Of a stretch of 64,000 nt of DNA, positions 3,800-63,937 are shown one piece after another (the stretch's first letter is position 1; each line of letters starts with the position of its first letter). Made by a program: the position numbers and the translations under genes. A model generated the notes under the pieces. That model saw only the letters and a list, made by a program, of their open reading frames with translations. It searched no databases and had not been told where the DNA came from. Origin of the DNA: Eukaryota sp. GEM-RC1 (Eukaryota); contig JAUFOQ010000006.1 in NCBI GenBank assembly GCA_040285855.1, forward strand, positions 558,001 through 622,000, given 5' to 3'.

Positions 3800-4149
3800 T
3801 GGAAAGCAAAAGGATTTCTCTTTTTGATTGATTAATGACTGTTGACGTCATTTTGTCTTTGAGAAGATCAGAACAATGAAGCTCCTTCGATGGTATTTCC
3901 AAGAACAACGTCTATTTTTGAACTACAAAGTATTCGAAATTGCTTTGTATCATCTCATTTCTTGATTGAGTGCCAACCAGGTCTAGGTTTGATGTATAAG
4001 CCAATGTGACGGTTTACAATTTATTAAATTGATCGAACTTCACTCAAACTCAAATCAAATTTAGACGAATTAATCAAGTAATACAGTAATAAAACTAATG
4101 AAAAAACTACAAAAATAATAACTTAGAAATTTTAATCATTAAGGTCATT

Positions 4150-5271
4150 CTAATGATTCATGTTCTTTTCATCAAGCAAAACTCCATTTAATTCATAGAT
4201 ATCCAAATGCAATGACTTCCGAATATCCATAAACATTTGAAGACCTTGTTTTTCAGGAGGACTTGGACAAATCATTAGAGCTAAGGGCATAGGTTCAGCA
4301 TCATCACGAAGAGGCGGTAGAAGATAAATCACATTCGATGGCAGCTTAAACAAACGGAAACCACATCTCTTGTAAAACCCAATTCTCCTAAGAGCCATAT
4401 CTTTCCCTGCTTCATCCTCCATATACTCAGGGAGCTCCACTTCCAGTACTAATGGATGACGAGTGTTTGTGTTTAGTACCTGCTTCAAGCATCTTAATAC
4501 TGCTTTACCAACACCACCGTTTCTGAATTGTTTAGATATAGCAAACAGTTCAACGAAATCATATTCTGGAGTTCTGAAAAAACTAATTAGACCAACTCGT
4601 TGCTTTTGTTTTGTATGTATCAGAAGCATGTAATAACAAGCTCTGTGTGATTTTGGTCCTTTCTTTATTAAATCCCAATGTACGTGTGGTTCTGGAAACT
4701 CTTCAGGTGGGAATGATGTCTGCAGTAATGAATGGGAGTAGTCCAACTCCGATCTATTAGAGACAACGGTGAAAAAGAGAGTGTTGGTGATACGTTGTGT
4801 CTTGTTATTGACTAGATTAAAGCCAGATCCAAAGAAAACGCTGGAATATAGTAGATTGAAAGTAATTGTCGTGTAAATGTCAATGATATCATCGTAGTTT
4901 TTAGGCAGTGGAAAGAAAGCGAAGTGACGGTAGACTGTTAGGGTGTCAATGGTTAGAGCTAGACAAGCAGATGTGCAGAGAGGGACAGACAGTACAAGAG
5001 GCGATGTGTGAGCGGAATTAAGACGAGCTTGAAGTGTCGATAAGAGGAATTTGAAGACAGCTTCAGAAAGAAAATTACCAGCCACAGCGTCCGACGTTGA
5101 GTGATTAGTAGTGAATTGAGAGATGTAAAACGCATTTTCAAGAGGAAGTATTGAGACATCAATGGAATCAATCGACCAATCTAGGTCTGGATTGAGTTCA
5201 ATAGTTTCAGTATAAGGAGATAGATGGTCAGGTATTGATCCATTTATGAAGGGGCAGTGGAATGAAGGCAT
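4150..5271 (-). CDS. GNAT-family N-acetyltransferase domain protein (copy 1)
   Basis: FAISKQFRNGGVG acetyl-CoA motif A, LVLEVE, RRIGFYKRCGF; ATG at 5271 matches the start of copy 2; the upstream ORF extension lies in a hAT end. Confidence 0.8.
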   Translation of the reverse strand: MPSFHCPFINGSIPDHLSPYTETIELNPDLDWSIDSIDVSILPLENAFYISQFTTNHSTSDAVAGNFLSEAVFKFLLSTLQARLNSAHTSPLVLSVPLCTSACLALTIDTLTVYRHFAFFPLPKNYDDIIDIYTTITFNLLYSSVFFGSGFNLVNNKTQRITNTLFFTVVSNRSELDYSHSLLQTSFPPEEFPEPHVHWDLIKKGPKSHRACYYMLLIHTKQKQRVGLISFFRTPEYDFVELFAISKQFRNGGVGKAVLRCLKQVLNTNTRHPLVLEVELPEYMEDEAGKDMALRRIGFYKRCGFRLFKLPSNVIYLLPPLRDDAEPMPLALMICPSPPEKQGLQMFMDIRKSLHLDIYELNGVLLDEKNMNH

Positions 5272-5291: not shown

Positions 5292-6462
5292 TAGGGCTGT
5301 CAATTTCTCCCATTTCTCCCAACTCCCACCCAACTCCCATCTCCCATGACCCTTGGGAGTGGGAGTGGGAGCTTCAGTAGCAATTTTTGGGAGTGGGAGT
5401 GGGAGTGGGAGCTCTCCGTTGGGAGGTGGGAACTCCCAAAATCTCCCATCTCCCATTTACAGACACAACTCTAACTTCAATTTAAAACAGAAACAAGCTA
5501 GCTAGACAAATACAGTTATAATTTTTCTAGAATATTAATAGGACTAGGTTTATTACATTTTTACTGTCTTTGTTTTGTTTTATTTATTTTCGTTTTATAA
5601 AGAGCGTGGTTGTTTATCTGTAAATTTCAACCAATGTCATCGCTTGATTTATCTGAAGATCCTGAAAACTCTGGTCTGTTTAAACATCCTGATTTTATTG
5701 AATTTGTTTCCTCTCTTTCAGTTTCAAAATTCCAAAAAGAACCACGATAAGAAATGATATGTTGAATGTTTATGAGTCATTTAAAGGATACTTGATAGAT
5801 AAATTCAAAAATGTGTGTAATTCTTCTAAAGTATCTATTAGGATTGATAGATGGACATCGAATACAAACAAGCATTTTAATGGGGTAACAGTTCACTGTA
5901 TTGAAGACTGGAATTTAAACATTTACAATGTACGTCCACGGTTTTAAGCACCTGAAAGAAAACCACACTGCCATCAACATTGCCGATGCTGTGGAAGAAA
6001 TTATTACTGAATTTGGTTTAAAATACAAAATGTGTTGTGTTTCAACAGGTATTCACGACTATCCGCATACATTGTATGCTAAGAACTTTATGACAACACA
6101 AGCCTCATCAGTTCCAAGTGAACAGTTATTTTCTCAGGCAGGGTGTGTTGTTACGAAGTTACGAGCATCCTTGAGTAGTGATTCTATTGAAGCAGTCCTT
6201 TGTTTGAAATCATGGTTCAAAGGTCGGGAGATGAGAGAGTTGTTCATGAATCAGAGATAGAGTTAGTGATTGTTATGTTTATAAAGTAAAGTGTCATTGT
6301 ACTAGAAGATACAAAAATGGGAGTTGGGGGGGAGTTGGGAGAATTTGTTGGGAGTGGGAGTGGGAGTGGGAGTCTCACCTATGACAAGTGGGAGGTGGGA
6401 GTGGTAGTGGGAAAACACGTGTTGGGAGTGGGAGAAACTCCCATCTCCCATTAACAGCCCTA
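5292..6462 (+). mobile_element. Internally deleted hAT DNA transposon
   Basis: TIR TAGGGCTGT/ACAGCCCTA, perfect 8-bp TSD CTGTTGAT, subterminal GGGAGT repeats, transposase remnants (IDRWTS; ASSVPSEQLFSQAG...LCLKSW). Confidence 0.92.
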
Positions 6463-7038
6463 CTGTTGATGCGATCAAAAAGAGTTCCCTCATCAAAACT
6501 AGAATGTTTTTCCATGTTCCTCCACTCACCAACACTTCTCAACTCCATATTCACCTTGGTCATTTGCTTCGTCTTAGAATTCTTCATCATCAAATTCAGG
6601 GAATTCAACAGGTTGATACCCTCTCTCAACACTTGCTAACCAATTGCGACCATTGCTTACTCTGTTTCCCCGTCCTTGTTGCAATGATGTCAATTGTCAT
6701 CTTTATCTTCCCTGGTGGATTATCTTAGTTCTCAAGAAAGACGGTTTTTTGCTGTCTTCATCTGCATATGTCTGATCTGGTGGGCCAAGAAGATCTGATA
6801 GACAATGGTGTATATAAGAATTTATCATTGTATATCAGTACATATAGTTGTCTTTGGCATGTGACTCACATGCTGTGAGTATATGTTCCAGACGATCTCC
6901 TGTCTTCAATGTCAGTTCTCGAGCTGTTTCCCAATCTGCTACATGGATGATGGTCCAGAAGCTCAAGCATTAACAAATCTAAAAATTTAAAATATTCCAG
7001 ATTTTTAGTCAAACAACGTTCATTTAGTTAGAATCATT

Positions 7039-8159
7039 CTAATGATTCATGTTCTTTTCATCAAGCAAAACTCCATTTAATTCATAGATATCCAAATGCA
7101 ATGACTTCCGAATATCCATAAACATTTGAAGTCCTTGTTTTTCAGGAGGACTTGGGCAAATCATTAGAGCTAGGGGCATAGGTTCAGCATCATCACGAAG
7201 AGGCGGTAGAAGATAAATCACATTTGATGGCAGCTTAAACAAACGGAAGCCACATCTCTTGTAAAACCCAATTCTCCTAAGAGCCATATCTTTCCCCGCT
7301 TCATCCTCCATATACTCAGGGAGCTCCACTTCCAGTACTAATGGATGACGAGTGTTTGTGTTTAGTACCTGTTTCAAGCATCTTAAAACAGCTTTACCCA
7401 CACCACCGTTTCTGAATTGTTTAGATATAATAAAGAAATCAACGAAATCATATTCTGGAGTTCTGAAAAAACTTATAAGGCCAACTCGTTGTTGTTGTTT
7501 TGTATGTATCAAAAGCATGTAATAACAAGCTCTGTGTGATTTTGGTCCTTTCTTTATTAAATCCCAATGTACATGTTGTTCTGGATACTCATCCAAATGA
7601 AATGAAGATTCAAGTAATGAATATGAGTAGTCTAACTCCGATCTATTAGAGACAACGGTGAAAAGAGAGTGTTGGTGATACGTTGTGTCTTGTTGTTGAC
7701 TAGATTAAAGCCAGATCCAAAGAAAACGCTGGAATATAGTAGATTAAAAGTAATAGTGGTGTAAATGTCAATGATATCATCGTAGTTTTTAGGCAGTGGA
7801 AAGAACGCGAAGTGACGGTAGACTGTCAGTGTGTCAACGGTTAGAGCTAGACAAGCAGATGTGCAGAGAGGGACAGACAGTACAAGAGGCGATGTGTGAG
7901 CGGAATTAAGACGAGCTTGAAGTGTCGATAAGAGGAATTTGAAGACAGCTTCAGAAAGGAAATTACCAGCAACAGCATCCGAAGTTGAGTGATTAGTGGT
8001 GAATTGAGAAATGTAAAACGCATTTTCAAGAGGAAGTACTGAGGCATCAATGGAATCAATCGACCAATCTAGGTCTGGATTGAGTTCAATAGTTTCAGTA
8101 AAAGGAGATAGACGGTCAGGTATTGATCCATTTATGAAGGGGCAGTGGAATGAAGGCAT
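7039..8159 (-). CDS. GNAT-family N-acetyltransferase domain protein (copy 2), 1-nt indel near 7660
   Basis: Near-identical to 4150..5271; A4 versus A5 run explains the split into ORFs 7632..8159 and 7039..7596. Confidence 0.8.
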
Positions 8160-8169
8160 TCAATCACTA

Positions 8170-8310
8170 CAAAAAGTATTTAAGGAAATTCTTCAGTCTG
8201 TGAATTTCTCTTAAGATGAATTCCCCATAACGAATTATGGACATTCATCTACACTCACAGTGCACATGGGCTGTGGCGGTTCTATCCCTTGCGGGTCCGC
8301 CACTGTTTCT
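8170..8310 (-). ncRNA. Candidate Fanzor omega RNA scaffold overlapping the Fanzor stop codon
   Basis: Minus strand: GUGGCGG..CCC-GCAA-GGG..CCGCCAC (GNRA loop), AGAUGAAU..CCAUAA-UUCG-UUAUGG..AUUCAUCU (UUCG loop), UUAAG-GAAAUUC/GAAUUUC-CUUAA hairpin; position matches TnpB/Fanzor omega RNAs. Confidence 0.65.
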
Positions 8311-11256
8311 GTTATTGAATCTTCATTGTTGTTTGTACTCTTTGCTGCTCTCTTCCGTCTTTCTTCAGCTAACTTGTCAGAGAAACACATTGGTCGATCC
8401 TCACCAGCGAGAGTACACTCAACAATCTTTAGAATATTCAAACAGCTATTGAAGTCTCGATTCCAGAGTTTATGACATTTTTTACAACGCACTAAACCCC
8501 AACACTTGACTTCATCGGGCTCTTCCTGCCACAACAGCTTATCATCTTCGTCCGTCCAACTAGACCAATTCCTCAGCGCTAATAGGCGATTTGCCTTCTT
8601 GTCAACTCTTCGCTTCTTCTTCCGGAAGTTTGGATCCTTGACTTTAAGGAAGGTTTCCGTTTCCCCTTCGTCATTGTTGTTCTCAGAACATCCGTGGCAC
8701 TGAAGAGATGTCCTGAATTCGTTAACCAGAAGAACCTGATAGCCAGCTTTTTTGAACAACTTTCTCGATCCTTTCCCCATGGATGGAGGCTTGTATTTCC
8801 TATGCCTTGACTGACTCCAATCACCTATGGCCAACCACGTATTGGTTGGATCTCCGTAAACTTGACGGAATCGATGGAGCATTTTACGTTCACTTTTTTC
8901 CTTGTATACTGATTTCCAATAGCTCCATTTGCGCCATTTAGATTGATGGTACAGAGACTCCATTCTATTTGCATACTTGTAGAATTGTTGGACGTACGCT
9001 TTAAATTTTGAAAAATTTGTTGTTTTGGAAGTAAATTCTGAAAATTCTGTCTGAATCTGTTCAGCTGTCAGTTGTCTTCCTGAAATTTCGTTAAAAGAAT
9101 AGTTTTTGAAGGCTTGGTTCTGAAGTACATTGTATTTTTTTTGTTTTCCTTCGTGCCTTCGAGTTCCTTGAGTATATCTCATTTTTTTGAATTGATTTTT
9201 CTTTTGAAGTGGTCTCTTTTTACTTGATTTTTTGACCTCATTATTCTCTTTTTGGAACTGGGCTTTATGCCTTTTAATTTCTTTCAATCTCTTCTTTTCA
9301 TATGTTTTTGAGATTTTTGGGTCAAGTGGGGAGCACAATGCCCAGGATTATCAATTTCTTCCTGGGTTTTTCTTCCAACCAAGTACAGAATATCCCATTG
9401 GTTAGGGTCCCCCACCACGACTTTTTTTATTTTTTAAATCCTCTAATTTTTCAGGATGTAAATCTTCCACATACTCCTCTTTTTCCTCCGGAGACTTGGC
9501 AGAGTATGGTTTGAACAGTAGATCATTTCTGGTCATCATGAGACTGATTGATTCACCATTGGTAGTTATCTGGTGACCAAATGAATACATCTTTTTGAAG
9601 GTGTTCAAGTATTTGTGATCAAGATTCAAATACTGGCTCCAAATTTGATTTTTAAATAAATTAATGTTTTCGCTTAGATGTTTTCGATTATAACCTTGAA
9701 CTTGAGGTTTAAATAAATTAATCATAGCTAGCGTATCCAATCGAAGGTGATCAGGAATTAAGCTGGTGGATTGTGGAAACATGCGGTACATCTTTGGTGG
9801 AATCTCATTACAGGAAGGGTTATTCTCAATCAATTTGTTGAGAACGAAGGCCTCTGGTAAGAGCTCCAAAGGCTTTACCTTTAATTGGTATTTGAGTCCT
9901 TTAGAGTCTGGCTTAAAGTTTTTGACAAATGTAATGAAATTTTGATGTTCATCTGATGGATTTTGCCAGATCTCGGTAAAATCAATATCGGATCCTCTGC
10001 CTTCTAAAATTTCTTTAAGGATATTATTGGACAACTTTTGCAACTGGTCTTTTTCGACTTTTTTTAAGTGCATTGTTTTTAATAATTTTTAGTTGTCCAT
10101 TTAAATTAAAGAAGAGTTCCCATGTTTTTTCCAAATATTCAATAAAACGGGATGAAATATTATTTTGATACATTGTAACAATCTCAGTAGCTGTATAATT
10201 CAATGTACGAGACATATCAGAGTACATGACATTGGGAATTTCCATATCCACGGGGAGAAGAATTTGGATATAGAAGCATCCCAGTTGAATTTTCAAAGCA
10301 TTGTGCTTTTTGCCTGGAGTACTTTGAACAATCTCAGTTACCCATTTGAGAATTTCACTTCCATCAATATTTTCCTCATTTTTAAATCTTTGATGAGCTA
10401 ATGGAGACAAGTATCCAATAGTCCAGAGCAATTGTTGGACACTCTCTTTGGTCCATTCTACTGGATTCAATTCCTGATTATCAAAAGAGTTCATGCAAAA
10501 GCCTTGAAGTAGCAGCAATGCACGTTGTTTAATTCGGTGATGATTTATAGAAATTTCATTTACCAATATGTTGTTATCAGTCCACACAGATTTTAGGGTT
10601 ACTTTAACCGTTTTTTCACCCGGGCATCTTAGCAATTCTTGTGTTTCGACTTGAAGGAAATACACAAAAAGGCTTTGTAATTCAACAATATCGTTAAAAT
10701 GTTCACGTAAACATTTCAAGTTTTGTTCAGATGTGAAATCTGTAGAAACTGGTGTGGGAACTGAATAACTTTCATTTTTTAAAATGTTCTTTACAACAGT
10801 AACCCAATTCAAAGATTTTCCAGTTCTAGGTCTGTAATAATTTCTAATAACACGGCCCAAATCTATTAGCTGAATTTTTGAATTTTTGAATTGTTTTAAA
10901 AAATATTTGTAAAAGAGAGGACACTGAATATTTGAACAATTCTCTGATTTTAAATTAAATTCATCCAACGTAGAACTTGCATCATAACCAATTATCAGAC
11001 CACAGTCAGTTAAAACTAAATAATCATTAAACGCACTAATCATAGATTCCTCTTGATTAAACGCTTGAACATTCACTCTAGCATGCTCAGAATTAGGTGA
11101 CAGAACTGAATCGCAACTTTGTTGTGTAGTGAATATAATTGATTCTACAATTGAAATTACTTGGTCCTGGACCTGAACTGTTTGAGTGATTATTGATGTG
11201 ATTATTATTTTGTCTTTTTTCTTTTTTAGTTTCTTTAGTAGCTGCTGAAGCTTCAA
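8235..11256 (-). CDS. Fanzor1-type (eukaryotic TnpB/OMEGA) RNA-guided endonuclease, split by homopolymer indels
   Basis: RuvC-I VVVGDPN (D at 9407-9409, in a frame missed by the ORF track), LAIGDWS, RuvC-II LVNEFRTS, zinc finger CHGC...CKKC, RuvC-III WNRDFNSCLNI; upstream ITTNGESIS and YQNNI segments resemble Fanzor1 N-terminal regions. Confidence 0.88.
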
Positions 11257-12160
11257 TCATTTTTACAAAAATGCATTTAATCGAGTGTTTGTGATCTAAC
11301 ATTAAGGTTACGTTTTCGAAAGGATCTTTTCTTTTTTTAGACTTAACTGGTGATTCTTTTTCGTTTGTTTTTTCATTTGTTTTTACTGCCAATGGGCATT
11401 TTCTTATATCATGACCAGTGTTTCTACACTTTGAACATTTACGCCCAATTGGTTTTTTCACCAGTTGAGGTTCGTTTTCATTATTATTGTTTGATCGTTT
11501 TTGTTTTCTTGGAGGCATATTGCTGACAGTGGCAAGCCTTTTTCCTGGATTAACGTGGCTGTCCAGTTTCAAGTTCAATCTGATACGAAATTGAGAGGGA
11601 TCAAATTGATGATGCATAATTTCATTTTGAAAATCTGTCATCATTATACAGTGATCAATGTGACCAATTGTTTCAACATTAAATGTCTTAAATAATACTT
11701 CAATAAAAAACAGAACAAATATGCCACAATCATAACCATTGTCCTGTTTCACAGTATTAATGTGACAATGGTAAAAATGGTTTGGGCAAAACGATTGTAT
11801 AAAATCAATTTTTGAGGACAACAAATTACTATTAGAGATAGAATCCATGAAGTATAACGTGTCAGTCATGAAATCTATAACACATAGTCCCCAGTGAGTT
11901 CCAGCAAATCCGTCAATAATACCATTGTTCATGAGAATAAGAACAAGCCGACAATCTGCATTTTTTTCTCTTATATCATGATAAATAACATCTTTCTCTA
12001 CCGTTAGAAAGTTATATACATGATAAAAATCCAATAGTTTGATTGGCGAGTGGGTAATCCAAACTGATATGATTTATGGAAAAAGAAGGTGGAATAGCTC
12101 TAACCATTCACATTCAGACAACAATGTTATGTCTTCAAATTCATGTGAGTTAAATGATAC
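11093..12160 (-). CDS. C48 (Ulp1/NEDP1-SENP8-like) cysteine protease plus CCHC zinc knuckle; probable N-terminal part of the Fanzor polyprotein
   Basis: DITLLSECEWL, GTHWGL (His), YFMDS (Asp), QDNGYDCG (Gln/Cys); CSKCRNTGHDIRKC knuckle at about 11394..11443. Confidence 0.82.
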
Positions 12161-12184
12161 CGGTCCGGGATTCGACTCGATATC
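12161..12184 (-). other. 2A-like ribosome-skipping (StopGo) motif DIESNPGP
   Basis: LFVVDLTNDGDIESNPG|P exactly matches D(V/I)ExNPGP with a preceding G and a hydrophobic upstream segment. Confidence 0.85.
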
Positions 12185-12409
12185 ACCATCGTTGGTTAAA
12201 TCTACCACAAACAAATGAATCAAACAAAATTTGAAATTGTGTTTATTCTCCAAATCAAAAGTGAATTGCTTTTGTCGAGTTTTACAACAAGACACGGACC
12301 ACTGCGGTATTAACTCATCAGGAGTTGCAGATATCAAGCTGTTAGCCTCTTCTCTGCAACTGCCCTGAGTTGTTAATCCTGGGTTAGGGCCGTAGTCCCC
12401 ACCCAAATT

Positions 12410-12694
12410 CATAACTGAAAGGACGGAACTTTCAGTCTCAACTGGATACAAAACATCCAGCCGAGGAGGATTGGAACCTCTTATAGTGTTAGGAGGATTG
12501 GAACCTTCCTGAACACATAACTGAAAGGACGGAACTTTCAGTCTCAACTGGATACAAAACATCCAGCCGAGGAGGATTGGAACCTCTTATAGTGTTAGGA
12601 GGATTGGAACCTCCTGAACACATAACTGAAAGGATGGAACTTTCAGTCTCAACTGGATACAAAACATCCAGCCGAGGAGGATTGGAACCTCTTA
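12410..12694. repeat. About 2.7 copies of a 105/106-bp tandem repeat rich in hairpins
   Basis: Units start at 12411, 12517 and 12622; near-identical; encodes 35-aa RGSNPPRLDVLYPVETESSVLSVMCSGGSNPPNTI on the minus strand. Confidence 0.95.
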
Positions 12695-13693
12695 CTGTGT
12701 GAGACATCAACAAACCTGATGGAGTCATGAGACGGAAATAAGTCACTGTCGACATTGTTATTGATTGTTCATCACTTTCCTCTCAGCAGGATTCCGTTTC
12801 ATAGGGGATTTTGATTTTACCAACAGTTTTCTTTTCACTTTTTACTGCTACTGATGCAGCTTTCTCAGGTATCAGCGTCTTGCTAGTCCTAACACGCTGT
12901 GATTGACTTACTTTCTTTCTTGAAGGTGTTCGCTATATATGCACTGACTGGTGCTACAGGTCTTATTGCTGTCTTCTATGATGCTGTTAGATTTAAGGAA
13001 TACGAGCTTCTTCTCATTCTGGCTTTTGGAATTCTTTCACCATTTGCTGAACTTGTCTGCAAGGACGACAATAGCTTCGACTCTTCTTCAGGTCTAGAAA
13101 TCATGGTTAAGTTGCTGCGTTGTGTACAAGTGGTTTATGTCTTCCTATAATGCTATTCCACATTGACAATATAGCCGCCATCCCTCTAACTATTGATTTA
13201 AGCGGGCTATGCTTTTCTACTCCTCGGTATTCATTTTTGTTGAGAAAGTTGCTCCTGACAACGACTCCTTTTAGTTCCTGTTTTGTTCATTGTAGATAAA
13301 CTCAATCAAACAGTATCCATTTTATCTTCGTATCCGTCTCTTCCTTATAGTGTCTCTGTAATAGTGTGATTCCTTTGAGTGTGGGTATACACTTTTGACA
13401 TGATCAATGCTAAATATCACACATCAGTCTTGTTACTTGTTCTCTTCTTAAATCAAGACGCTCTTTCATACCCTAGATAAACAAAATGATAGCTATGGAT
13501 TGTACAGAGTTTATTGATTCTATACATCTAGATAATGCACACAAAACTTAAACGTTGCAAAACGGAGGTGTTAGTGGTATCAAAAGAAAGCTGTCACATA
13601 AACCTATGTCTGTATAAAACACATCACATTTTAACAATGTCTACAAGGAGACATTGACATTTGACATTTGTATTGGCTATACGTCGTCAGCAA

Positions 13694-15931
13694 ATGTCAC
13701 TAGCATTCGGTTTGGGCAAAAACAAATTCTTCAGTTGTTCCCAAACCATTCCAACAAATGCTCCTTCTGCAATGAACTTACCGAAATTTGCAGATTCAGC
13801 CAATGTCAAGGTCGTTACAAGATGTCGACCTGTTGTCAATGATAAGTCTGTTGCACAAATATCTGGTGACACCATTACTTTGTCAGATAATTCTACTGAT
13901 GAACCTATAGAACGTACTTTCCAGTTTGACAAAGTCTTTCCGAGTAACACGGACCAACCTGAGTTTTTCAACGATGTTGGTAAAGAACTTTGTGATGTTG
14001 TTCTTAACGGCTTCAATGCTTGTATTCTTGCATACGGTCAAACTTCTTCAGGAAAGACCTACAGTATCGTTGGAGAATGTCCCGAAACCAGGGGCATTAT
14101 TCCTCTCTCCTGTGAATATCTCTTCTCCCAAGCAACTAGACGATCTCCTTACTTCAATGTTACCATCTCAATGTCCATACTCGAGATCTTTCTCAACCAA
14201 ATGATGGATCTTGGTCGGGAAGCTGTCCAAAAGCTCAAAAACTTTCCATCATCTCGGATTAGTTACTCTCCTGCTGCAGTAATTCCCTCCCCAGCACCTC
14301 CTTCCTACTCACAGGATGACGTTTGCATCCCTCCTCCTCCAATGGTGCGTCCTGCTTCTGCCAAAGATCCATCGACCTTCTCTCCTCCATCGCAGAACCT
14401 TGTTATCAGGGAAGAGTCGAAAGGAAAAACACATCTTCATGGACTAGCTCAAATAACAGTCACTTCAATCGACGAAGTCTCTAGAATTCTCACTGAAGCT
14501 CTTAAAGTACGTCATTCAGCTCACACACTTCTCAATTCCCACTCTTCACGTTCTCACCTCGTGGTAACCTTCTCTGTTACTCAAACCTCCATCCGCAACA
14601 CCTCCAACCAAGCAGCAATCACTGGAAGTCTATCCGTAGTAGATCTAGCTGGCAGTGAGCGTATCAAGAAGAGTCATGGAATGGAGGTGACTACAGAACG
14701 TAGAAGGGAAGCCGCTAGTATCAACTCAAGTCTTTCCGTCCTAGGAAACGTAGTATCATCACTTTCTGGAGGTAGCTCTCACGTTCCCTTTAGAGATTCA
14801 AAACTAACACGTGTTTTACAGTCATTGGGGTTAGGTCAAGGTGGTAATTCTTATATTATACTGTTAGCAACTCTATATCCATTGGCTGCTCACTTTTCTG
14901 AGACTCTGAATACGTTAACCTTTGCTAATAGGTGTTTGGCTATTCAGACTGGTCCGAGAGTTAATTATAATCTTTTAGATGAGCATTCTTATCAATCTAA
15001 ACTACGTGAGCTGCAGGATACGATTGTCCAAATGACTGGGAAGATCAATCAATTACAAGAAGAGCTCAGCGAACGTGATGAAAGATTACAAATGAAACAA
15101 AGTATGGGTGTGGTTGAAGGTCAAAAAGATGACGTTAATTTGAACTATGATGATGTGGCAATGTCACGTCAAGCGATTAATACAATCAATAAGCTCGAGA
15201 ACAGGTTCAGGACTGCTCAGGGTAATAACGTTGCTGCTTTAGTACGGCAAGTTCAACGGACGTTAAAGTACAAGAATGAGGTTGTTGAGGTGTCTGATGA
15301 AAATTCACGACTTTTGAGCGAATCACGTGAGCTTTTGAGCCGGCAGAATGATTTGTATCAAAGTGAATTGTCCCATGCCTCTCAGTTGACTGCTGAATTA
15401 ATGCATCAATGTGATGAACTGAAGACAAAACATCAGTTAGAGGGAATTAGAGCACAAACTGCTATTCAATCGTCACGAAGTGGTTTGCTGTCGAGTAATT
15501 TTAAGAGTTCTAAAAATTTAAATAATTCAAAAGTTGATGGAGTCACGAACTCTAATTATAACAGACTCTTGGAGCAAAAAGACTCGGAGATCGCCCAGTT
15601 GAAATCACAAATCAGTCAAATGCAATCAGGTCACGATACTCAGATTAAATCAATTTCAAAAGAGGCTCAAAAACTGTTTAAATTAATGAGGCAACGTGAT
15701 AGGGTCATTAATGACGTCATCACCGGTCGTCTATCAGATCATATTCATTTTGGTGGTATTAAAGGCCGATTTCTTGATTTGCCGGTCAGTCAGAAACCTG
15801 CCACTTTCAACGTTTCTGAGTTTAAAGAGCTCTATAAGCTGACGTCATTGATTAGTGATGACGATAGGATATTATCGGTTCCAAATTTTAGAAAAAGAAG
15901 ACCGAGGTCAGCTGCTCCGTCGTGGGTTTGA
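13694..15931 (+). CDS. Kinesin motor protein with C-terminal coiled coil
   Basis: VVTRCRP, FQFDKVF, P-loop AYGQTSSGKT, NSHSSRSH, VDLAGSE, HVPFRDSKLT; start could also be ATG 13772. Confidence 0.95.
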   Translation: MSLAFGLGKNKFFSCSQTIPTNAPSAMNLPKFADSANVKVVTRCRPVVNDKSVAQISGDTITLSDNSTDEPIERTFQFDKVFPSNTDQPEFFNDVGKELCDVVLNGFNACILAYGQTSSGKTYSIVGECPETRGIIPLSCEYLFSQATRRSPYFNVTISMSILEIFLNQMMDLGREAVQKLKNFPSSRISYSPAAVIPSPAPPSYSQDDVCIPPPPMVRPASAKDPSTFSPPSQNLVIREESKGKTHLHGLAQITVTSIDEVSRILTEALKVRHSAHTLLNSHSSRSHLVVTFSVTQTSIRNTSNQAAITGSLSVVDLAGSERIKKSHGMEVTTERRREAASINSSLSVLGNVVSSLSGGSSHVPFRDSKLTRVLQSLGLGQGGNSYIILLATLYPLAAHFSETLNTLTFANRCLAIQTGPRVNYNLLDEHSYQSKLRELQDTIVQMTGKINQLQEELSERDERLQMKQSMGVVEGQKDDVNLNYDDVAMSRQAINTINKLENRFRTAQGNNVAALVRQVQRTLKYKNEVVEVSDENSRLLSESRELLSRQNDLYQSELSHASQLTAELMHQCDELKTKHQLEGIRAQTAIQSSRSGLLSSNFKSSKNLNNSKVDGVTNSNYNRLLEQKDSEIAQLKSQISQMQSGHDTQIKSISKEAQKLFKLMRQRDRVINDVITGRLSDHIHFGGIKGRFLDLPVSQKPATFNVSEFKELYKLTSLISDDDRILSVPNFRKRRPRSAAPSWV

Positions 15932-16752: not shown

Positions 16753-17310
16753 CATGGAACGCAAATGTTCCGTACCGCGGCGATTTTAGGCGTACCGTAC
16801 CGTACGTATGTACGTATGGTACAAGTACCGGTACTGTACTTTTGACCGACTAATTAATACTTTTTTGAAGATGATAATCCAATGTGAGATTTTAACAGTT
16901 ACCATCGTAATACATTCTACTGTTAAACAAAGCTCAGGATATCAAGATCGTGACTGTCACACTTGTCCAAATTTAAGGTACGTCATTTGCTGACCACAAC
17001 TTCCCCAAAATAACATTTCTACGTCAGCAAACACACGAAATCCACAATAGTAGTAGCGTCTTGGAATCACAATGCATTTGACGAGTGACTACGACGTAAT
17101 ATAACAATGATAAAGGGCCCAAAAACCCACAGATTGGATTTCGAAACGATCAGAAGATGCAGTACCAATTTGAACTAGTACTGTGTTTGACTAGTGAATG
17201 AACCTCCACTTAAAAAATAGTATTTATAAATCCATTTAGAATATTCATAAATGGACTTTTTATAAAATCAAATGACATCGGTACGGATAAAATAAATCGG
17301 TACGTACCAA
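16753..17310 (+). mobile_element. hAT-type MITE family A (CATGGAACGCAAATG end), right end truncated
   Basis: Homologous to the copies at 26218, 29969 and 63938. Confidence 0.8.
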
Positions 17311-23380: not shown

Positions 23381-25757
23381 CTATCCGTGTGACAAATGAA
23401 ATTTGTAATTCTTATTTGTGTGACAAACATGAACATTATAGATGGGAGCCGGCTCAAATTTTGCTCACGGCTCAGCTGCAGGTACTAGTTAGCCGGCTAT
23501 GGCTTCCAACATAGTTTAGCCGGCTCAAGCCGGCTTTAGCCGGCTCAGCCGCAATGAGTTTGATGTAGATTTATTGTTTAACTGTTTTGTCAAAGCATAT
23601 GCTTTCAGTGTCTTCTCTTTGATAGATTTGTTTTATGTGGTTCATTATTGTTATACACAAATTCTACCCTATTCTTCAATTATCGCTACTCTACTCATCG
23701 TCTTTCTGATCTTCTTCGTTCAAAAGCCAGCACCGCAAACACATTAATGCAGTTACCGTGGTGTCATCTAACCGGGAACGCTTCTTAGTTATTACGTTAC
23801 CAGTTTGTGAAAACAATCGTTCACTACTAACGGAGGTCGCTTGAACAGCTAACATATCCCTTGCAAATTTGCTCATCAGAGGAAAGTTTTCAGAGTTTAC
23901 TCTCCACCAATCTAAGGGATTGTCATTCTCGGCCGAAAACATAGAAAGATACGTATCTAACTCCTTTTCAACTGATAGATCCTCAGAGTCAGAACGTTCA
24001 TCTGTGGTACTGTTCTGGGACACAGATTCTTTGATGATCTTAAGCTTAGCTCTGAAGGATTTGGTCTTCTTTCTCACTTCTCTTCCTCCATTTTCACTGC
24101 TATACTCCTCCTGAAGGCGTGTTAATAGCAGATGTCTAACTTCCTGCAAGTTCACATGCGTTGGCCACATTAAAGGACTTAACTTGATAGACGGATCCAT
24201 CACAGTTGCAATCTTGGTCGTGTCATTCAGTACATTGGCATCGTACTTAGCAATGATTTTCTTCATAAAGATGCTACAAAAACCGGTTACTTTGTTTGGA
24301 TATACCTCACTCAATTCCTGCATCTTTTTGTGCAGGTCTGACTTCCGGCGAATATTCTCCAATTCTGCCAAATTGCTGTTTAGTACTCCTTGGCCAAATT
24401 TGGCAATTTCAACATCTAGCACTTCTTTTATGGTTTCCCAATACAGAATTGTATGGGAAATTGTCACGTCAGATGCAGATGAAAGATCGGTTGTGATATC
24501 ATAGAATGGTTTCAACAGTTTCAACAGCTTTGACAATGTTACTGTTTCAAAGTCAGATAATATTAGTTCAGTAATTTGCTCATTTTGTAAGAAGTAATTA
24601 ATGATAGCCAACTGGTCGTGATACGTTTTTAGCATGAGATATGTACTATTCCAGCGAGTAGGAACGTCAGAGGGAATTCTTTGAAATTTTTGCCTGTGTC
24701 TTTGGCGCAAGTTTTGAGCTTTTCATTCAATGAACTGGACATATGGGTTTTAGACGTCAATTTTTGAATCTTAAGTATACTGGCTTGTATAAAGGGCAAT
24801 CCATTCTGGACCATGATGTTTAAAACATGAGCAAAGCATCGCTGATTTTCAGACCTTTCGTTCAGTAAATCAACTGCATTCACAATGTTCCCAGCATTGT
24901 CAGTTGTCCATGATTGTGTCTTGGTTTGAAGCCCATAATCAGCAATAATGGTGTTCAGTTTCGCTGAAATCATTTCTGCGGTATGCGGAAAAGGCAAGTA
25001 AGTTGATGTTCATTGTTGATGTTCATTGAACATCAACTTTTATCCGTGTGACAAGTCATAGTGTTTTGTATATTGAATAGAACATCTTGTCGTGCAAATA
25101 TCAGGAAGCAAATGTTCCTGAAGGAATGCTTTGAAGCATGACTCTTGGGGTTGTTCAGAGATTTGGGACTTTTTGGTTCGAAATGTATGATTCATCAAGT
25201 AGTGTAGACTTATAGTGTGTCAATTAGTGTACCGTTGTCAGATGGGATGTAGATGTCTTCTCTGAACACTAAGAGAGGTTTCAGAACACAAACAAAAAGT
25301 TGAATCCGGTTGGTGTACAGCTTCTAATGTTTCGGAAGATCTTCATCGCGATAATGATAGTTCATATTAACTAAGACGTATCAGTTTCAACGTTTGAGTA
25401 GTGGTCTACGATTCAAACTAAACAGAATCAATGTTTCTGCCTACAAGTCAGAGTATAACTACTATAAAGCAAGCATCACAACCCTTGCAAAGACACACAG
25501 AAAATCGTCAGAATTTATGGACAAAATAAGAAAATGAAGTTGTGTAGAAGCTAGAAGGTTAAAAGATGCTTAAGAAGACAGTGAGTCCATTACACCTTAG
25601 ATACAGATGTGTGATGTGAAGGTTTTACTAGTAGGTAAACTGAGAAGATGATAGCAAGATAACTTCCGTCTAGGTCTATATGTGGTGTCTTGGTAAAATC
25701 CAATTCAAATTCTGTCACACGGATAAGAATTCCAAAATTCATTTGTCACACGGGTAG
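23381..25757. mobile_element. TIR element (about 45-bp imperfect TIRs CTA(T/C)CCGTGTGACAAATGAA) containing a nested hAT fragment
   Basis: 23381..23425 is the reverse complement of 25713..25757 with few mismatches; no TSD seen. Confidence 0.65.
23691..24997 (-). pseudogene. hAT transposase, 5'-truncated, one frameshift
   Basis: TTDNAGN, CFAHVLN, DVPTRWNS, PLDWW, ATSVSSERLFS dimerisation domain; AGCCGGCT subterminal repeats at 23447-23550. Confidence 0.9.
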
Positions 25758-26217: not shown

Positions 26218-27506
26218 CATGGAACGCAAATGTTCCGTACTGGAGCGATTTGAGGCGTACCGTACCGTACCGTACCGTAAGTACGTACGGTACAAGTGCC
26301 GGTACTGTACTGTTGACCGACTAAAATACATTATAACTATTTTGAACATGATGATCCAATGTGAGATTATAACCATACCTGGAAAATACACTTTTCTGTA
26401 TTTTCTGTATTTTTGTATTTCGTGTATTTGTATTTTTTATTTTTTATTTTTCAGTATTAAAATACTGTATTTTTTTAGGAATACGTTTCTGAACTTACTG
26501 CCTGTAAAGTACCTCTTTTGGATGTACATGTAGTTCTTTTATCTCCAATTTTTCTTCATATGATTTATAGAAGTAAATAAAAACATGATGTCAATCAACA
26601 TACAAGACGAAGTAGTTGTAGCAGTTTATTTGCAACCAAAACAGAAAACAGATGAACAAACTACAGTAGTCTCCTGGATTAGGTCGAGGAATAATTGGAG
26701 GAAGAATTGCTCCTTGATTGTCTTTCTCCAAAGGTAGGACACATAATACGTGCCAAAACCTGCCAACAAGACCAAAAGCAGAATTGAGTCTGACCAGGAG
26801 TGACAGACAATTGATCAGTCTCTATTTACTGAAGGAATTATAGTTTAACTTAAGTATTAGTAGAAACGAATCTAAATACATGTACATGTAGGCGATCATT
26901 TAACATCATTGTTGTCGATGTCCACTACTAAAAATACAGATAATATAACATCATTGCCTTTGTATTTTTGTATTTTAATCTGTATCTGTATTTTTGTATT
27001 TTTGTATTTGTATTTTGTTCAACCCTTGTATTTTCCAGGTATGATTATAACAGTTACTTGGTCATACATTCTACCGTTAAACATCACTCGGGATATCAAT
27101 ATCGTGATTATCACACTTATTCAAATTTAGGGTACATTGTACGTCATTTGCTGACCAGAACTTCCCCAAAATGACATTTCTACGTACGAAGCTCAGCAAT
27201 TGCCCGAAAAATCAACAATAGTAGTAGCGTCGTCGAATCACAATGCATTTAACGAGTGACTACTACGTTATATAACAGTGATAAAAGGCCCAAAAACCCC
27301 CAGATTGCATTTTGAAACGATCAGAAGATGCGGTAGCAATTTGCACTAGTACTGTGTTTGACTAGTGAATGATCCTCCACTTAAAAAATAGTATTTATAA
27401 ATCCATTTAGAATATTCATAAATGGACTTTTTATAAAATCAAAGGACACCGGTACGGATAAGACAAATCAATACGTACGGTACGTACCAAAGATTTGCGC
27501 ACATTG
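26218..27506 (+). mobile_element. hAT-type MITE family A, complete, with nested MITE
   Basis: Imperfect TIRs CATGGAACGCAAATG / ATTTGCGCACATTG; 8-bp TSD GTTTATAC. Confidence 0.9.
26374..27043. mobile_element. hAT-type MITE nested in family A
   Basis: Perfect 17-bp TIR CATACCTGGAAAATACA; 8-bp TSD ATTATAAC; TGTATT subterminal repeats. Confidence 0.92.
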
Positions 27507-29968: not shown

Positions 29969-30771
29969 CATGGAACGCAAATGTTCCGAACCGCGGCGAT
30001 TTTAGGTTTACCCTACTGTACTTTTGACCGATTAACATACAGTCAACTACCGAATAGAGCCCCTTCCGCATATGGCTCTATTCGGTAGTTTTTTCTATGA
30101 AAAGGAGCCATAATCAATACAGGGGAGGAGTTTTTTGACTTTATGCTCATAAATAGTCAGATAATAAAAAACAGTAAATAATGATTTTATTTAATGTTAT
30201 ATATGAATACGTCAAATAATAAGTTATTTTCAGGAACTGGCTCTATACGGTAGGGCTCAAATTTAGAGCCCCTATCAGTTGGGGCTCTATTCGGTAGGGG
30301 CTCTATTTGGTAGTTGACTGTATATTAGTACTAATTTGAACTTAATAATCCAATGTGAGATTTAAACAGTTACCATCGTCATACATTCTACCGTTAAACA
30401 TAGCCCATGATATCAAAATCACGATGGCCACACTTATTTAAATTTAGGGTACATCATTTGCTGACCACAACTGTCCCAAAATGACAATGCTATATACAAA
30501 GCTCAGGAATCGCATGAAAACAACAATAGTAGCATCTTCGACTCACAATGCACTTAACGAGTGAATGGTACGAGATATAACAATAATAAAGTTCCCAAAA
30601 CCCAAAGTAACTCTAAACGATAAGAAAATGCAGAAGCAAATTGTAATAGTACAGTGTTTGACGAAACAATGAACCTCCACTCCAAAAATAGTATTGTAAA
30701 TTCATTTAGATCATTCATAAACACGACTTTATATTAAATCAAATGACGGAACCAAAGATTTGCGCACATTG
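29969..30771 (+). mobile_element. hAT-type MITE family A with nested Tc1/pogo-like MITE
   Basis: Same termini as the 26218 copy; 8-bp TSD GTACTAGG. Confidence 0.9.
30040..30320. mobile_element. Tc1/mariner-pogo-type MITE
   Basis: TIR CAGTCAACTACCGAATAGAGCCCC (1 mismatch) with TA TSD. Confidence 0.9.
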
Positions 30772-32908: not shown

Positions 32909-33802
32909 CAGCAAGAAATCCATTTTTAAATTAATCGTAGTACATGTACATTTGTTTGCATTTGCAAACAGAATTTGTACAGAATCTATTTCTGTACAAA
33001 AGTACATGTGTTGTAACAATGGCACATGAAATTTTATCACAGCTGTCGCAACATGCTAACTTTTTCTTCTGTTTCTGCAAATTTCTCTAGATCGTTACTG
33101 ATTTAAGACTGACAATAAAAAGTCAACAAATCTGACCTGACTGTTTGTACTACGCACCATCGTAAATTTCTTCTAATACAGACCACTTCAAATTTAATAC
33201 AAGCAATTACATTTGTTTGCTTGTAATGAGATCATTGTTTGTGTTTAAGGCGCCAAAGCGTTGTTCTCAAGATTATACTGTATTACTTCCGATATTTCTT
33301 GTTGTTGGATTGGTTTTTCGGCCGCAGACAAAAATTGACAAACAAAAGTATTGTTACAATGCATTACAATTGTACGCCATATCTGTTCCTTTTATGAACT
33401 ATTTAGAAGTTACTGTAACGGTTTAATCCAGATAACCGCTTTGTTTTTATAGTTATTGTATTTATTCCGAATGTAATAGACTAAACAACTAAAATTTGGT
33501 ATCGTTAAAACAACACCCATCACAATCAAATCTTACAACAGCTTTGTCCTCATAACAGGAACTCACATCGAATAAAGCATTGGAGATGAGTAGGGGAACC
33601 GCTTTGTTATAATTTATCCAACTTTAAGATTCAGTCACATTCTTGATGACGTGACGGCTTCCATAAAGCGACAGTCATAAATGGCATCCAATTAGTGAGG
33701 CCAAGAAGTTGAAAATTTGTCTAACACGCGTTTGCAAGTGTGGAATACATTGTATGTGCGTTCTTTGGTTAAAAATGATAGAAGTCAGTTTAGATTTCCT
33801 CA

Positions 33803-35875
33803 ATGTCAATACCTTCACTTCCCAATTACACTTTAGTGCGGCTCGTTGGATCTGGAGCCCACGGGAGCGTCTACTATGGCTATCACAATAAGACCAAACA
33901 AGAATGTGCTGTGAAAGTCACAAATAATCGAAAACGTGTCTCATCTGCCGAATTCCGTCAAGAAGTTGCTCTTCTTAAACGTCTATCTCATCCTAACATT
34001 CGTCGATTGTATGATGTCATTGAAGATTCAAAGAATCAACTTTTCATAGTTCTTGAGTTCTGTGACTGGGAGTTGTTAAGAGAGTCTGACATTGGAACCT
34101 CACATACTAGTTTTGGACTTAGCTCTCTCAGAGACATCTTCCTTCAAATTTGTACAGCATTGTCTTATATCCATTCTCAAGGTGTTGTTCATAAAGATGT
34201 CAAGCCTTCTAATATCTTAGTTGCTCGTACAGGTGCTGCTGGAAATGCTGACAAACGTATAGTACTCAGTGATTTCGGCATATCTTCATACATTGAAGAT
34301 GATATTGAGTCTACGATGCAAGGAACACCTCTATTTATGGCACCAGAACTTCTCTCTCCTGGAGTATCTTCGGAGGACATGAATAACCCTGCTGTTGATA
34401 TGTGGGCTGCTGGTGTTTCCTTCTACATCCTTGCCTTTGGAGTATCTCCTTGGGGAAATGTTACAAATCGCCAGGAACTCTTCTCTATTGTGTTGGCATA
34501 TGCTTCTGACAATTTCTCCATCGATTTTCCTCCCGTAGACCCATTTCTCAAAGATTTGTTGTTGAAATGCCTTGATCCGAACCCTTTAACCCGAATTTCC
34601 TCCTTCCAAGCACTTAAACATTGTTGGTTCAGTGAAGGTGAATGTTCTTCGTCCATTCCGGATTCCTTTGAAACAATTGGAGACTTTTCACAAGAGGAAT
34701 TAGATACTGCTGTTACATATGTCTCTGAAATGGCATTTCAAACAAATCCCCGAAAGATTGAACAATGGAATTTGCCAACTTTAACTGAAGCTCAAAAAAC
34801 CTTATTGCTATTGGAATCTACTGTTCAACTATTCAACCTTTGCAACAACACCATTTCTATGGCTCCAGATGACGTCAACACTCCCGCACGCAGAGATCTT
34901 GACAACAAAGTCACTGCTCTATTGAAGGAGGCCCGTGGAATGAACGTTTCTCCCAATATGGATGATCTTATGGATCTATTCAGGAGATGGGTGGAGGTAG
35001 TTGAAAGAGATGCTAGGTATGGAGCGGAAGAATCTCCAAATCCCTGTCAGTTATCAACTAAGCATTTAAAGTATATATTGGATAATGTTCTGCCTGTTAT
35101 CAGACATTACCTCGATGAGTTTTCCAGTAAGTTAGACTCTTGTACCACTGGTAGTTGTGAAGGGAAATGTGCAGGCAAATGGTCTTCTGTTGATGCTAGT
35201 AAGTTCCGTCAGTTTTTCCAAAAGTCATTCAATATTATTAGGTCCAATCCAATGTGTAACACGTGTATTCGCTTCGTTTGCAACAACAACGTCGTTCTTG
35301 AAGAACGTCCAAACATTCCATTCCACACAATTGTTCTTGATGTTGGATCGTCGACTAACCCATGGTCTTCTTCTTCGTCGTTTGATGAACTGCTTGAAGA
35401 ATCAAGAATTGGTCACATGGTGATTATGCCTTCTGTGGCAATGGACGTTCTAGCTGAGATCCTAACCATGTCGTTGAGGTTCTCCCCTCCTGGATCTGTT
35501 ATTAGAGCAGCAATCTGGAATGACACAAACGACGATGGAAAACGTCTGCGTATTGTTTGCCAAGACTTCTCTGGTGGAATTAATGATGCTACTACTACAG
35601 ATTGTCAAGAAGGATTATCTAAAGGTGATTCGGTGGCTAAGTGTTCCATAATCACTGAAACCTTCCTCAATGGAACGTTTACTTACACAGAGGATGTAGG
35701 TTATGGTATTATTGACATCAATGTCCCTGTTCCTGAGTCATATAGTCTACATGTTCCAATTACAAAGGAAAGTTCCTTTCTACTTAAATTAGATAGCATG
35801 TACACTGAAACGGTGGAGTTTGTGAGCACAATTTCCGATACAATGTACAGTACCATTTTGAGTTCATTGAGGTAG
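33803..35875 (+). CDS. Ser/Thr protein kinase with C-terminal degenerate HATPase-like region (copy 1)
   Basis: GSGAHG, AVK, HKDVKPSN, DFG, GTPLFMAPE, DMWAAG. Confidence 0.92.
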   Translation: MSIPSLPNYTLVRLVGSGAHGSVYYGYHNKTKQECAVKVTNNRKRVSSAEFRQEVALLKRLSHPNIRRLYDVIEDSKNQLFIVLEFCDWELLRESDIGTSHTSFGLSSLRDIFLQICTALSYIHSQGVVHKDVKPSNILVARTGAAGNADKRIVLSDFGISSYIEDDIESTMQGTPLFMAPELLSPGVSSEDMNNPAVDMWAAGVSFYILAFGVSPWGNVTNRQELFSIVLAYASDNFSIDFPPVDPFLKDLLLKCLDPNPLTRISSFQALKHCWFSEGECSSSIPDSFETIGDFSQEELDTAVTYVSEMAFQTNPRKIEQWNLPTLTEAQKTLLLLESTVQLFNLCNNTISMAPDDVNTPARRDLDNKVTALLKEARGMNVSPNMDDLMDLFRRWVEVVERDARYGAEESPNPCQLSTKHLKYILDNVLPVIRHYLDEFSSKLDSCTTGSCEGKCAGKWSSVDASKFRQFFQKSFNIIRSNPMCNTCIRFVCNNNVVLEERPNIPFHTIVLDVGSSTNPWSSSSSFDELLEESRIGHMVIMPSVAMDVLAEILTMSLRFSPPGSVIRAAIWNDTNDDGKRLRIVCQDFSGGINDATTTDCQEGLSKGDSVAKCSIITETFLNGTFTYTEDVGYGIIDINVPVPESYSLHVPITKESSFLLKLDSMYTETVEFVSTISDTMYSTILSSLR

Positions 35876-35973
35876 TTCATTTTTTGATCTGTATCTTTTG
35901 TCTAACAAGATAATTGAGTAACAAGTTGTGAATTTAGGTTGTCTTTATATTTTTTGTTTGGGAACATGTCTAC

Positions 35974-37142: not shown

Positions 37143-37646
37143 GCAAACATCAATCTACACCAATCGGTTTAAATAGTCTGAATCAGACTATTTCTAGTCC
37201 AGACTAATTCTTTATCCAGACTAATTAAACCGTTTGGTGTACTTAACTCAAAAATTTTTCATTGAAAACTCTACCGTGTTGTATGACAGAGAAGATGGTA
37301 AAGGAGAACTGTTGTCATCGTCACCATCAATGTTAATCATAGTTAGGAAAACAGTATACTAGAACAAGAATGCAAAGAAAAATTGTTCTTTCTTCCAAAT
37401 AGAATCATTTTAGTACTACAGTTGCATTCCATGATCAAATATAACTAACATACATGTAAATACGGTATATACTCTGTAAACCCAAGGAAACTAACTGTAT
37501 TCGGTACCCAAAAAGGCACCCTTCCTAGGGGAATATATATTTGCAAAAACAAGGAAATGTAATGAGTTGTTACTGTACAATAAACAAATTTACAAAAAAA
37601 GATGAAAATAAACAAATCTCCTAGTCCTATCTCGAAAGAAAGAACT

Positions 37647-39728: not shown

Positions 39729-39941
39729 TGAGGAAATCAAAACTGACTCTGACCTTCATGTTAGGATTTTTGACTAGGAATGCAGAAACACGTGTTTGAC
39801 CAATTTTCTACTTGTTTGTGTCACTAGATCTGTCACTACAGGGAGATGTCACAATATCAAGGAAAGCAATTGGTTGCGCTGATGAAGTAGGTGGTCGCAG
39901 GAATATGTGAAGAGACGTTAGGGAGTATTGGGTTGCGGGTT

Positions 39942-63700: not shown

Positions 63701-63937
63701 TTGCTGCTGAAAATTTCTTTGATGCCTTTTTACAGTTGTGCCGTAACCGTAGGTAAAATATGAATCAGTCTCTTTGGCGCAATCGCATTGTTTTTTCCTT
63801 ATATAGAAGTTTTCCAAGGTATTTGAATCGTATTCTAAACAAATTGTATCGTGGTAGTTCAAGATTAGATGTGTATCATTTAATAATTTTTAAGTACTAG
63901 TTGTTTGTATTTCGGTAATTTACTAGTATATCTGTAC

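Follow-up and report, generated by a model that had tools for sequence, protein, structure and literature searches.

Fanzors are known as single proteins of 600–700 amino acids (aa) that are carried as passengers by transposons and viruses, and C48 and OTU accessory proteases are present in MuDR, Zisupton, and Helentron elements. The 2A (StopGo) peptides of retrotransposons and the C48 proteases of DNA transposons are known separately from each other. Most Fanzor1 (Fz1) nucleases are described as single 600–700-aa proteins (PMC11423790). Here, we analyzed a 64,000-nucleotide (nt) stretch of DNA from Eukaryota sp. GEM-RC1 (contig JAUFOQ010000006.1, positions 558,001 to 622,000), referred to as the window. 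Its minus strand contains a cassette that sequence tests identify as Fanzor1, with an architecture that is absent from the relatives we compared and from the literature we searched.

When the open reading frames (ORFs) of the cassette, listed in Table 1, are joined, they run from Met 12755 to the last codon at 8238, which is 4,518 nt or ~1,505 codons in seven frame pieces, in keeping with the product of ~1400–1500 aa proposed in the initial annotation of the window. The order is a 35-aa repeat, a degenerate 2A-like site, a canonical 2A, a C48 protease, a decayed 2A-like site, a CCHC zinc knuckle, an exonuclease-like region, Fanzor1, and a folded 3′ RNA. The hairpin array, 2A, protease, zinc knuckle, and Fanzor1 were all found at the places given in the initial annotation, on the minus strand, as was a polyprotein-type frame with the 2A at the N terminus of the protease and Fanzor1 at the C terminus; what had been overlooked is the exonuclease-like domain of ~215 aa between the knuckle and Fanzor. 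Three borders (2A–protease, protease–knuckle, and exonuclease–Fanzor) each lie within an open frame, and the six breaks all lie within domains, namely the repeat, the protease, the start of the exonuclease-like domain, and Fanzor (three times). The order and identity of the domains, the in-frame fusions, and the multiple near-identical copies of each piece are observed. We consider it very probable that the architecture is a repeat leader, 2A, C48 protease, decayed 2A, knuckle, exonuclease-like domain, and Fanzor1. It is likely, judging from the sequence, that Fanzor1 is the end of one virus-style polyprotein of ~1,500 aa in a multi-copy element that was likely mobile in recent times.

Table 1. 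Features of the cassette and breaks in host genes, in window coordinates.
Feature	Position	Strand	Details
Cassette ORF pieces	12489-12782; 12074-12586; 11093-12073; 10024-11256; 9402-10088; 8235-9347	minus	Abut or overlap
Short frame with VVVGDPN	9424-9340	minus	Abuts or overlaps neighboring cassette ORFs
Start of polyprotein frame with 35-aa repeats	12492..12755	minus	Met 12755, alternative Met 12728
Repeat array	12410..12717	minus	Three ~105-nt units with four RNA hairpins each; encodes the 35-aa repeat
Degenerate 2A-like GDYGPNPG/L	12374..12400	minus	Fails class A motif; invariant in 6/6 copies
Canonical 2A/StopGo GDIESNPG/P and upstream tract	12161..12220	minus	Pro at 12163 opens the protease
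Ulp1/C48 cysteine protease domain	11552..12163	minus	204 codons; PF02902
In-frame TAA within first third of protease	12074..12076	minus	In 6/6 copies, all ending ELFHLLFP
Decayed 2A-like LKLDSHVNPG/K	11540..11572	minus	C terminus of protease; likeness to 2A judged by eye
CCHC zinc knuckle CSKCRNTGHDIRKC	11396..11437	minus	From sequence; PF00098 E 0.095, below cut-off
PolB-type 3′-5′ proofreading-exonuclease-like domain	10625..11270	minus	+1 break at ~11218-11233
Complete Fanzor1 nuclease	8235..10614	minus	~790 aa, four frame pieces
Candidate omega RNA/right end	8160..8256	minus	Two stem-loops in an outer stem; overlaps last Fanzor codons
Breaks in host genes	3430, 7660, 45721, 50780, 51245, 32336		polX, GNAT, HEAT, DnaJ (twice), glycosyltransferase 92 (in-frame TAG within domain)

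The last ORF of the cassette matched SpuFz1 (E 2.3e-11) and PpFz1 (E 1.7e-10). A Fanzor1 profile was built from 23 proteins (21 complete ORFs from 54 other loci, together with P0001 and P0003). It covered the cassette pieces, joined with X at the breaks, at positions 18–610 of 619 with 339 bits and was colinear across the three breaks in Fanzor at 10059–65, 9422–28, and ~9290–9345. The REC/WED N-terminal region has the length expected of Fanzor1, and tblastn with the L001 protein gave a match from residue 12. As stated in the initial annotation, a RuvC domain with three acidic residues and a zinc finger is present: the triad is D 9409 (GDPN, 9412), E 8720 (NEFRTS, 8723), and D 8456 (NRD, 8462), and the zinc-finger cysteines are in CHGC 8699 and CKKC 8486. 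According to PMC10432273, SpuFz1 binds Mg through D383 and N385, for which D-P-N is the counterpart in the cassette. The C-terminal motif of Fanzor1 given in PMC3627910, D-X(125,275)-[TS]-[TS]-X-X-C4 finger-X(5,50)-RD, was also found, with D 9409, ~232 residues to TS 8711, CHGC/CKKC, and 5 residues to RD, across two breaks. The cassette Fanzor has two inserts, one of ~50 lysine-rich aa past RuvC-I and one of ~35 aa in the zinc finger. With its catalytic residues present, the protein is predicted to be an RNA-guided DNA cutter.

The protease matched PF02902 with E values of 1.6e-10 to 3.9e-10 (41.6 bits against a cut-off of 20.7), and its PDB matches were Ulp1, SENP8, and SENP1. The catalytic residues His 11896, Asp 11845, Gln 11746 (oxyanion), and Cys 11728 are intact and aligned with those of Ulp1 and SENP8. 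The Atlas value was 0.96, with 28 of 30 matches to generic C48 proteins. The domain had been called NEDP1-like; the subfamily scores were 25.9 bits for Ulp1 and 25.1 bits for SENP8, and because these are nearly equal, C48 alone is established and SENP8 is not favored. No relatives of the protease were found among 600 candidates of 179–571 aa, and a single-sequence AlphaFold model (mean pLDDT 31.4) gave no usable fold. The protease and the knuckle share one unbroken frame, and the 2A and the start of the protease share another. The alignment with SENP1 is colinear across the TAA (query 11–159 vs. chain 37–196). We see three readings of this TAA, namely a nonsense change throughout the family, a miscall that recurs systematically, or an intron. 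Since the copies share it, the protease may have been lost from the family as it now stands, with the nuclease made from Met 11518.

The description of the repeat as a hairpin array was borne out by its RNA folding (z −6.56 and −4.59, with 0 of 200 shuffles equally good), and the array is, in addition, in-frame coding sequence. It consists of three 97-nt copies spaced 105–106 nt apart, and the number of units across the copies of the cassette is 2–3. In the five other copies, the frame is open from the leader Met codons through to the 2A. Between copies, the residue changes in the repeat (L/S, N/D, and V/I), as seen in the proteins, fall in hairpin loops, which is a hint of selection on the RNA structure. 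The repeat units end in Gly-Gly (VMCSGG, VMNLGG), which could be a cleavage site for the element’s own C48 protease.

The sequence D[VI]ExNPGP occurs once in the six frames of the window, at 12184–12161. The class A motif GD(V/I)ExNPG/P (12187–12161) is in frame with the downstream protein, is invariant in 6/6 copies, and lies 10 residues ahead of the start of the SENP1 match. The 2A of the initial annotation was confirmed, although the in-frame NPG sites number three and not one: there are 11 NPG tripeptides in the window, and the three in the cassette frame are located at leader or domain borders. The spacer between GDYGPNPG/L and the canonical 2A is 66 aa, and Met 11518 (MPPRKQKR, basic) is 8 codons after LKLDSHVNPG/K.

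PF03104 matched residues 10–93 of the 410-aa frame that contains most of the exonuclease-like domain (E 2.3e-4 to 2.7e-4, 20.8 bits). With our own PolB profile, made from 35 exonuclease regions (3 of 38 loci were skipped because the motif was absent), this frame scored 15.7 bits, at the top of 1,069 window segments (the next scored 4.0), and the X-joined exonuclease region scored 16.8 bits, relative to a maximum of 9.8 in 1000 shuffles. Atlas gave stand-alone PolB-exonuclease/RNase H clusters at 0.85–0.87, which were rated as leads. Nothing was found for the exonuclease-like part in PDB, NCBIfam, PHROGs, or phage searches, and when 1.84 billion representatives were searched with the 410-aa frame, none of the 5 matches covered this part credibly. 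P0016 and P0017 were considered as relatives of the frame and rejected as repeat-rich, spurious matches, and a single-sequence AlphaFold model of the frame (mean pLDDT 32.7) gave no usable fold. The Exo II region aligns IIGYD to iiGYN of the profile; Exo I (VKMIE, 11266) and Exo III (HFND, 10701) were placed by eye and look degenerate. Homology of this domain to PolB exonuclease is probable on the strength of the profile matches, and its active site is, by eye, probably degenerate. The domain and the Fanzor N terminus are in one unbroken frame, so their fusion holds under any account of the breaks. Residue 72 is the first Met in the 410-aa frame and lies downstream of residue 10, where the exonuclease match begins; therefore, the frame must be entered from the upstream knuckle frame. 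Joining the knuckle frame raises the profile score by just 1.6 bits, which makes this the weakest junction.

The 3′ RNA at 8140–8259 had a fold z of −3.5 (0 of 200 shuffles), and the shorter 8165–8260 had a z of −2.65. The fold spans the Fanzor stop codon and abuts the start codon (8159) of a host GNAT copy. The candidate omega RNA had no match in Rfam; the scan gave 2 matches, both at chance level. No transposase, recombinase, or reverse transcriptase was found in the cassette ORFs or in 7 of 18 upstream ORFs (42–85 aa) that were scanned, so the element would need a helper or some other route. The initial annotation had called the element self-contained, which is not supported, in that no mobilizing enzyme was found in the cassette; it had also reported no transposase, terminal inverted repeat, or target-site duplication (TSD) around the cassette, and we likewise found none. 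Because hAT is the most frequent neighborhood reported for Fanzor1, which is reported from non-autonomous elements too (PMC10530073), and because Spu-1 is without a transposase (PMC10432273), mobilization in trans is what we assume by default.

The hAT element at 5292–6462 was considered as a carrier of the cassette and rejected because it has its own ends and an 8-bp duplication that do not enclose the cassette. This hAT is degenerate, with ends TAGGGCTG/CAGCCCTA, the 8-bp duplication CTGTTGAT, and TGGGAG subterminal repeats. A second, larger hAT at 23381–25757 has a frameshifted transposase and inverted subterminal repeats. The GNAT acetyltransferase gene is present in tandem copies (4145–5271 and 7034–8159) that are 95% identical over the coding sequence only and differ at 32 synonymous and 17 non-synonymous codons. 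Directly upstream of the start codon of each copy is a different mobile element.

Other copies of the cassette were compared as annotated proteins. By locus tag, pieces are present at 11 other loci (~12 in all, on five contigs), with 93–99% identity where compared. The C-terminal piece has 4 members on 4 contigs (96–98% identical), the leader has 6 members on 4 contigs, the middle piece has one other member, and the N-terminal pieces have two further members. The annotated copies are all fragments of 130–242 aa; exact look-ups found 2/10 in one set and 1/10 in another. We read the unpaired pieces elsewhere as patchy annotation or truncation.

Among the 54 other Fanzor1 loci, which are on viral and metagenome contigs, none matched the protease, the exonuclease-like part, or the leader, and none has the 2A motif, with many of these loci being short contigs. 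All 21 complete Fanzor1 relatives are 601–714 aa long. A search for proteins of 649–2000 aa found one, an ordinary 755-aa Fanzor1, which is weak evidence, and viral scans with Fanzor, the protease, and the leader gave no close relative. A knuckle match in L048 (E 0.005) was rejected because the knuckle motif is in none of the loci. A 373-aa giant-virus ORF in L002 (7323–8444) and L003 has the N terminus of a Tc1/mariner-like transposase in frame with a Fanzor1 C terminus, likely as a result of an internal deletion. Related broken Fanzor1 genes are present on eukaryote-like metagenome contigs (L043 5798–7675, L046 5807–7675, L048, L049, and L036), and one of them adjoins retrotransposon remains.

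Taken as a whole, the mechanism toward which we lean, with some reserve, is as follows. The five frameshifts would be homopolymer miscalls of the assembly, and one transcript would give one polyprotein. StopGo at NPG/P would free the protease, whose N terminus would coincide with the border of the domain. A knuckle–exonuclease–Fanzor product of ~1,090 aa would be marked off by the decayed site (or by Met 11518). This product would bind the folded 3′ RNA and cut element-free sites beside a target-adjacent motif, so that the element is more readily retained or copied, in line with proposals for other Fanzors. The knuckle and the exonuclease fold would serve as extra nucleic-acid-binding modules and not as catalysts, the protease would strip SUMO/NEDD8-type tags off host proteins as an accessory against silencing, and an enzyme from another locus would move the element in trans. 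A stronger version, in which the element is active and transposase-free, StopGo (perhaps with +1 recoding) rations Fanzor, the exonuclease fold and knuckle process ends for homing copy-in, and the SUMO/NEDD8 protease disarms silencing, is clearly unlikely.

Several results weigh against a single polyprotein in a mobile element. The TAA is present in 6/6 copies, and to account for it takes a substitution, a pair of compensating errors, an intron, or else readthrough. Two of the three 2A-like sites (12400 and 11572) fail the class A motif, and a 2A motif by itself is no guarantee of skipping (PMC3708506, section 7). No annotated copy joins RuvC-I to RuvC-II, and the break at 9422–28 is common to the window copy and P0008. 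For the exonuclease-like domain, the PF03104 score is below the Pfam cut-off of 23, the score with a narrow viral profile was 4.6 bits (E 0.7), and the hhalign probability was 2.8. Comparison of the right junction with 12650–13720 gave no inverted match of >8 nt and no junction TSD; an empty site was not found, with the flank of GNAT copy 1 matching the cassette flanks no better than shuffles did. Each of the 11 other loci yielded a single piece, so that the linkage of leader to Fanzor is seen in the window only, and on a shared contig the locus tags of leader and Fanzor are 107–341 or more apart. Because Fanzor’s own pieces are equally unpaired elsewhere, the missing leader linkage is weak evidence in both directions.

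The initial annotation had described single-base frame changes between the ORFs, mostly at homopolymers, which implies that the breaks are sequencing errors. Both points suit the five frameshifts, which fit homopolymer errors; the sixth break is the in-frame TAA, and its presence in 6/6 copies does not. There are 52 runs of 5 or more equal bases in the 4,518 nt of the cassette and 82 in the 21,138 nt of 13 host ORF spans, and breaks per run were 4–5/52 vs. 5/82 (the host run count omits RRS1, the 47729 gene, and the 21328–23091 gene, and 1–2 frame changes in a BTB gene are uncounted). The host genes broken at runs are polX, GNAT copy 2 (copy 1 is intact), HEAT, and DnaJ twice, and the glycosyltransferase has a TAG. 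With a similar rate in host genes, homopolymer error is sufficient for the five frameshifts, and such frequent small assembly errors matter for other findings in the same genome. An extra base at ~12508 is in the window copy only and absent in 5/5 other leaders, and a run-length break common to P0015 and P0020 is absent in the window copy. A dead or non-autonomous family, in which the stop and some of the frameshifts are real, founder-fixed, and copied in trans, with no full-length protein produced now but the 3′ RNA perhaps still used, would account for the shared TAA, the 9422–28 break in 2 copies, the six breaks within 4.5 kb, and the fragmentary state of every annotated copy. However, the 2A motif is intact, as is every catalytic residue of the protease and the nuclease, the breaks are at homopolymer runs at about the host rate, and there is one stop codon only in ~1,505 codons, so we regard such a family as unlikely. 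Short unannotated introns that take out the stop and some of the frame changes are most improbable: a host 30-nt GT-AG intron is present in RRS1, and a 48-nt GT-AG stretch over the TAA would preserve the frame, but the two sequences in the SENP1 alignment across the stop are of nearly equal length (108 vs. 106 residues), and the Fanzor profile spans two breaks without surplus sequence.

Two of the +1 breaks share the 12-mer TAAAAAAAGTCG, at its only two occurrences in the window. This context, which we take to resemble that of yeast Ty frameshift sites, has a Lys codon and then AGT C, which would permit perfect +1 re-pairing, and one break is common to two copies. The +1 breaks might therefore be ribosomal frameshift sites that ration the nuclease, besides StopGo. 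We consider such programmed recoding very improbable, since an identical context equally predicts an identical basecalling error, one base too many is likewise present in a run of 7 in the host HEAT gene, and four or five serial shifts, one being −1, would leave almost no product; the shared 12-mer and the P0008 break fit systematic miscalling better than they fit +1 recoding. We also rejected an alternative genetic code, because host ORFs of 693–757 aa are open under the standard code. It is very unlikely that the cassette is a chance composite, in which a 2A–protease–knuckle leader of other elements has been joined to Fanzor here only. This would agree with locus tags of leader and Fanzor that are never adjacent outside the window and with leader modules in 0/54 other Fanzor1 loci, whereas the borders keep the frame and coincide with the ends of domains, the leader and Fanzor pieces are similar in copy identity and on the same contigs, and the N, middle, and C pieces of Fanzor are unpaired elsewhere too, which indicates patchy annotation.

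The window is eukaryotic DNA, with genes for kinesin, kinases, a HEAT protein, DnaJ, and polX nearby (some named from their translations). The 30-nt GT-AG intron of the RRS1-like gene (named from its translation) is at 47078–47107. An inverted pair of Ser/Thr kinase genes (33783–35885 and 37635–39748) is 94% identical, and a dispersed repeat family is present at 16753–17307, 26218–27478, 29969–30747, and 63935–64000, with 77–95% identity.

An active transposase-free element built like the polyprotein of an RNA virus would, if real, constitute a new eukaryotic class of RNA-guided mobile elements. A Fanzor1 with a naturally 2A-processed leader, a ubiquitin-like-modifier protease, and a fused exonuclease-like domain would show that translational recoding can set the dose of such nucleases and that they can be combined with modules for counter-silencing and end processing. 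The use of 2A, known from RNA viruses and retrotransposons, would then extend to a DNA element that is RNA-guided. For the engineering of Fanzor editors, the layout also suggests a natural point of fusion at the N terminus. The evidence on the cassette comes from one lineage and an error-prone assembly, and the activities are predicted.

The initial annotation knew of no description of this architecture, and our literature search agrees: among the papers listed, none was found to describe a Fanzor that carries a 2A, a protease, or an exonuclease domain, with the census supplements of PMC10530073, PMC10432273, and PMC10711439, which may list long fusions, outside that search. In the portions available, such a layout is absent from PMC3627910, PMC10530073, PMC10432273, PMC11423790, PMC10711439, PMC10288648, PMC5751038, PMC6338049, PMC12338488, PMC3708506, and 10.64898/2026.09.24.754024, and the term matches in PMC12846837 and 10.64898/2026.06.17.732966 consisted of one reference line and otherwise none.

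The Fanzor1 systems SpuFz1, PpFz1, and GtFz1 (PMC10432273, PMC11423790, PMC3627910) share with the cassette the length of the REC/WED/RuvC/zinc-finger region, the D-P-N/E/D residues, the C4 finger, the folded 3′ RNA, an element without a transposase (as Spu-1), and many near-identical copies. The cassette differs from them in ~700 aa more at the N terminus (2A, C48 protease, knuckle, and exonuclease-like domain) and in that no terminal inverted repeats were found. Its sequence pattern agrees with that of PolB exonuclease (PF03104, including stand-alone forms) between the first strand region and IIGY, whereas the cassette domain is below the family cut-off, has its acidic residues partly replaced (by eye), and is fused to Fanzor with no polymerase. 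The non-LTR retrotransposons with 2A (L1Tc, Ingi, Rex1, L2, CR1, and Crack; PMC3708506) likewise have an N-terminal class A 2A before the first enzyme domain; in the cassette, which is without reverse transcriptase or APE, a cysteine protease follows downstream and then a RuvC nuclease that is predicted to be RNA-guided. DNA transposons with C48/OTU proteases (PMC5751038) share a Ulp1-family protease and a CCHC knuckle as accessory modules, whereas the cassette is without a DDE/HUH transposase, and its protease lies between 2A-type borders, upstream of Fanzor.

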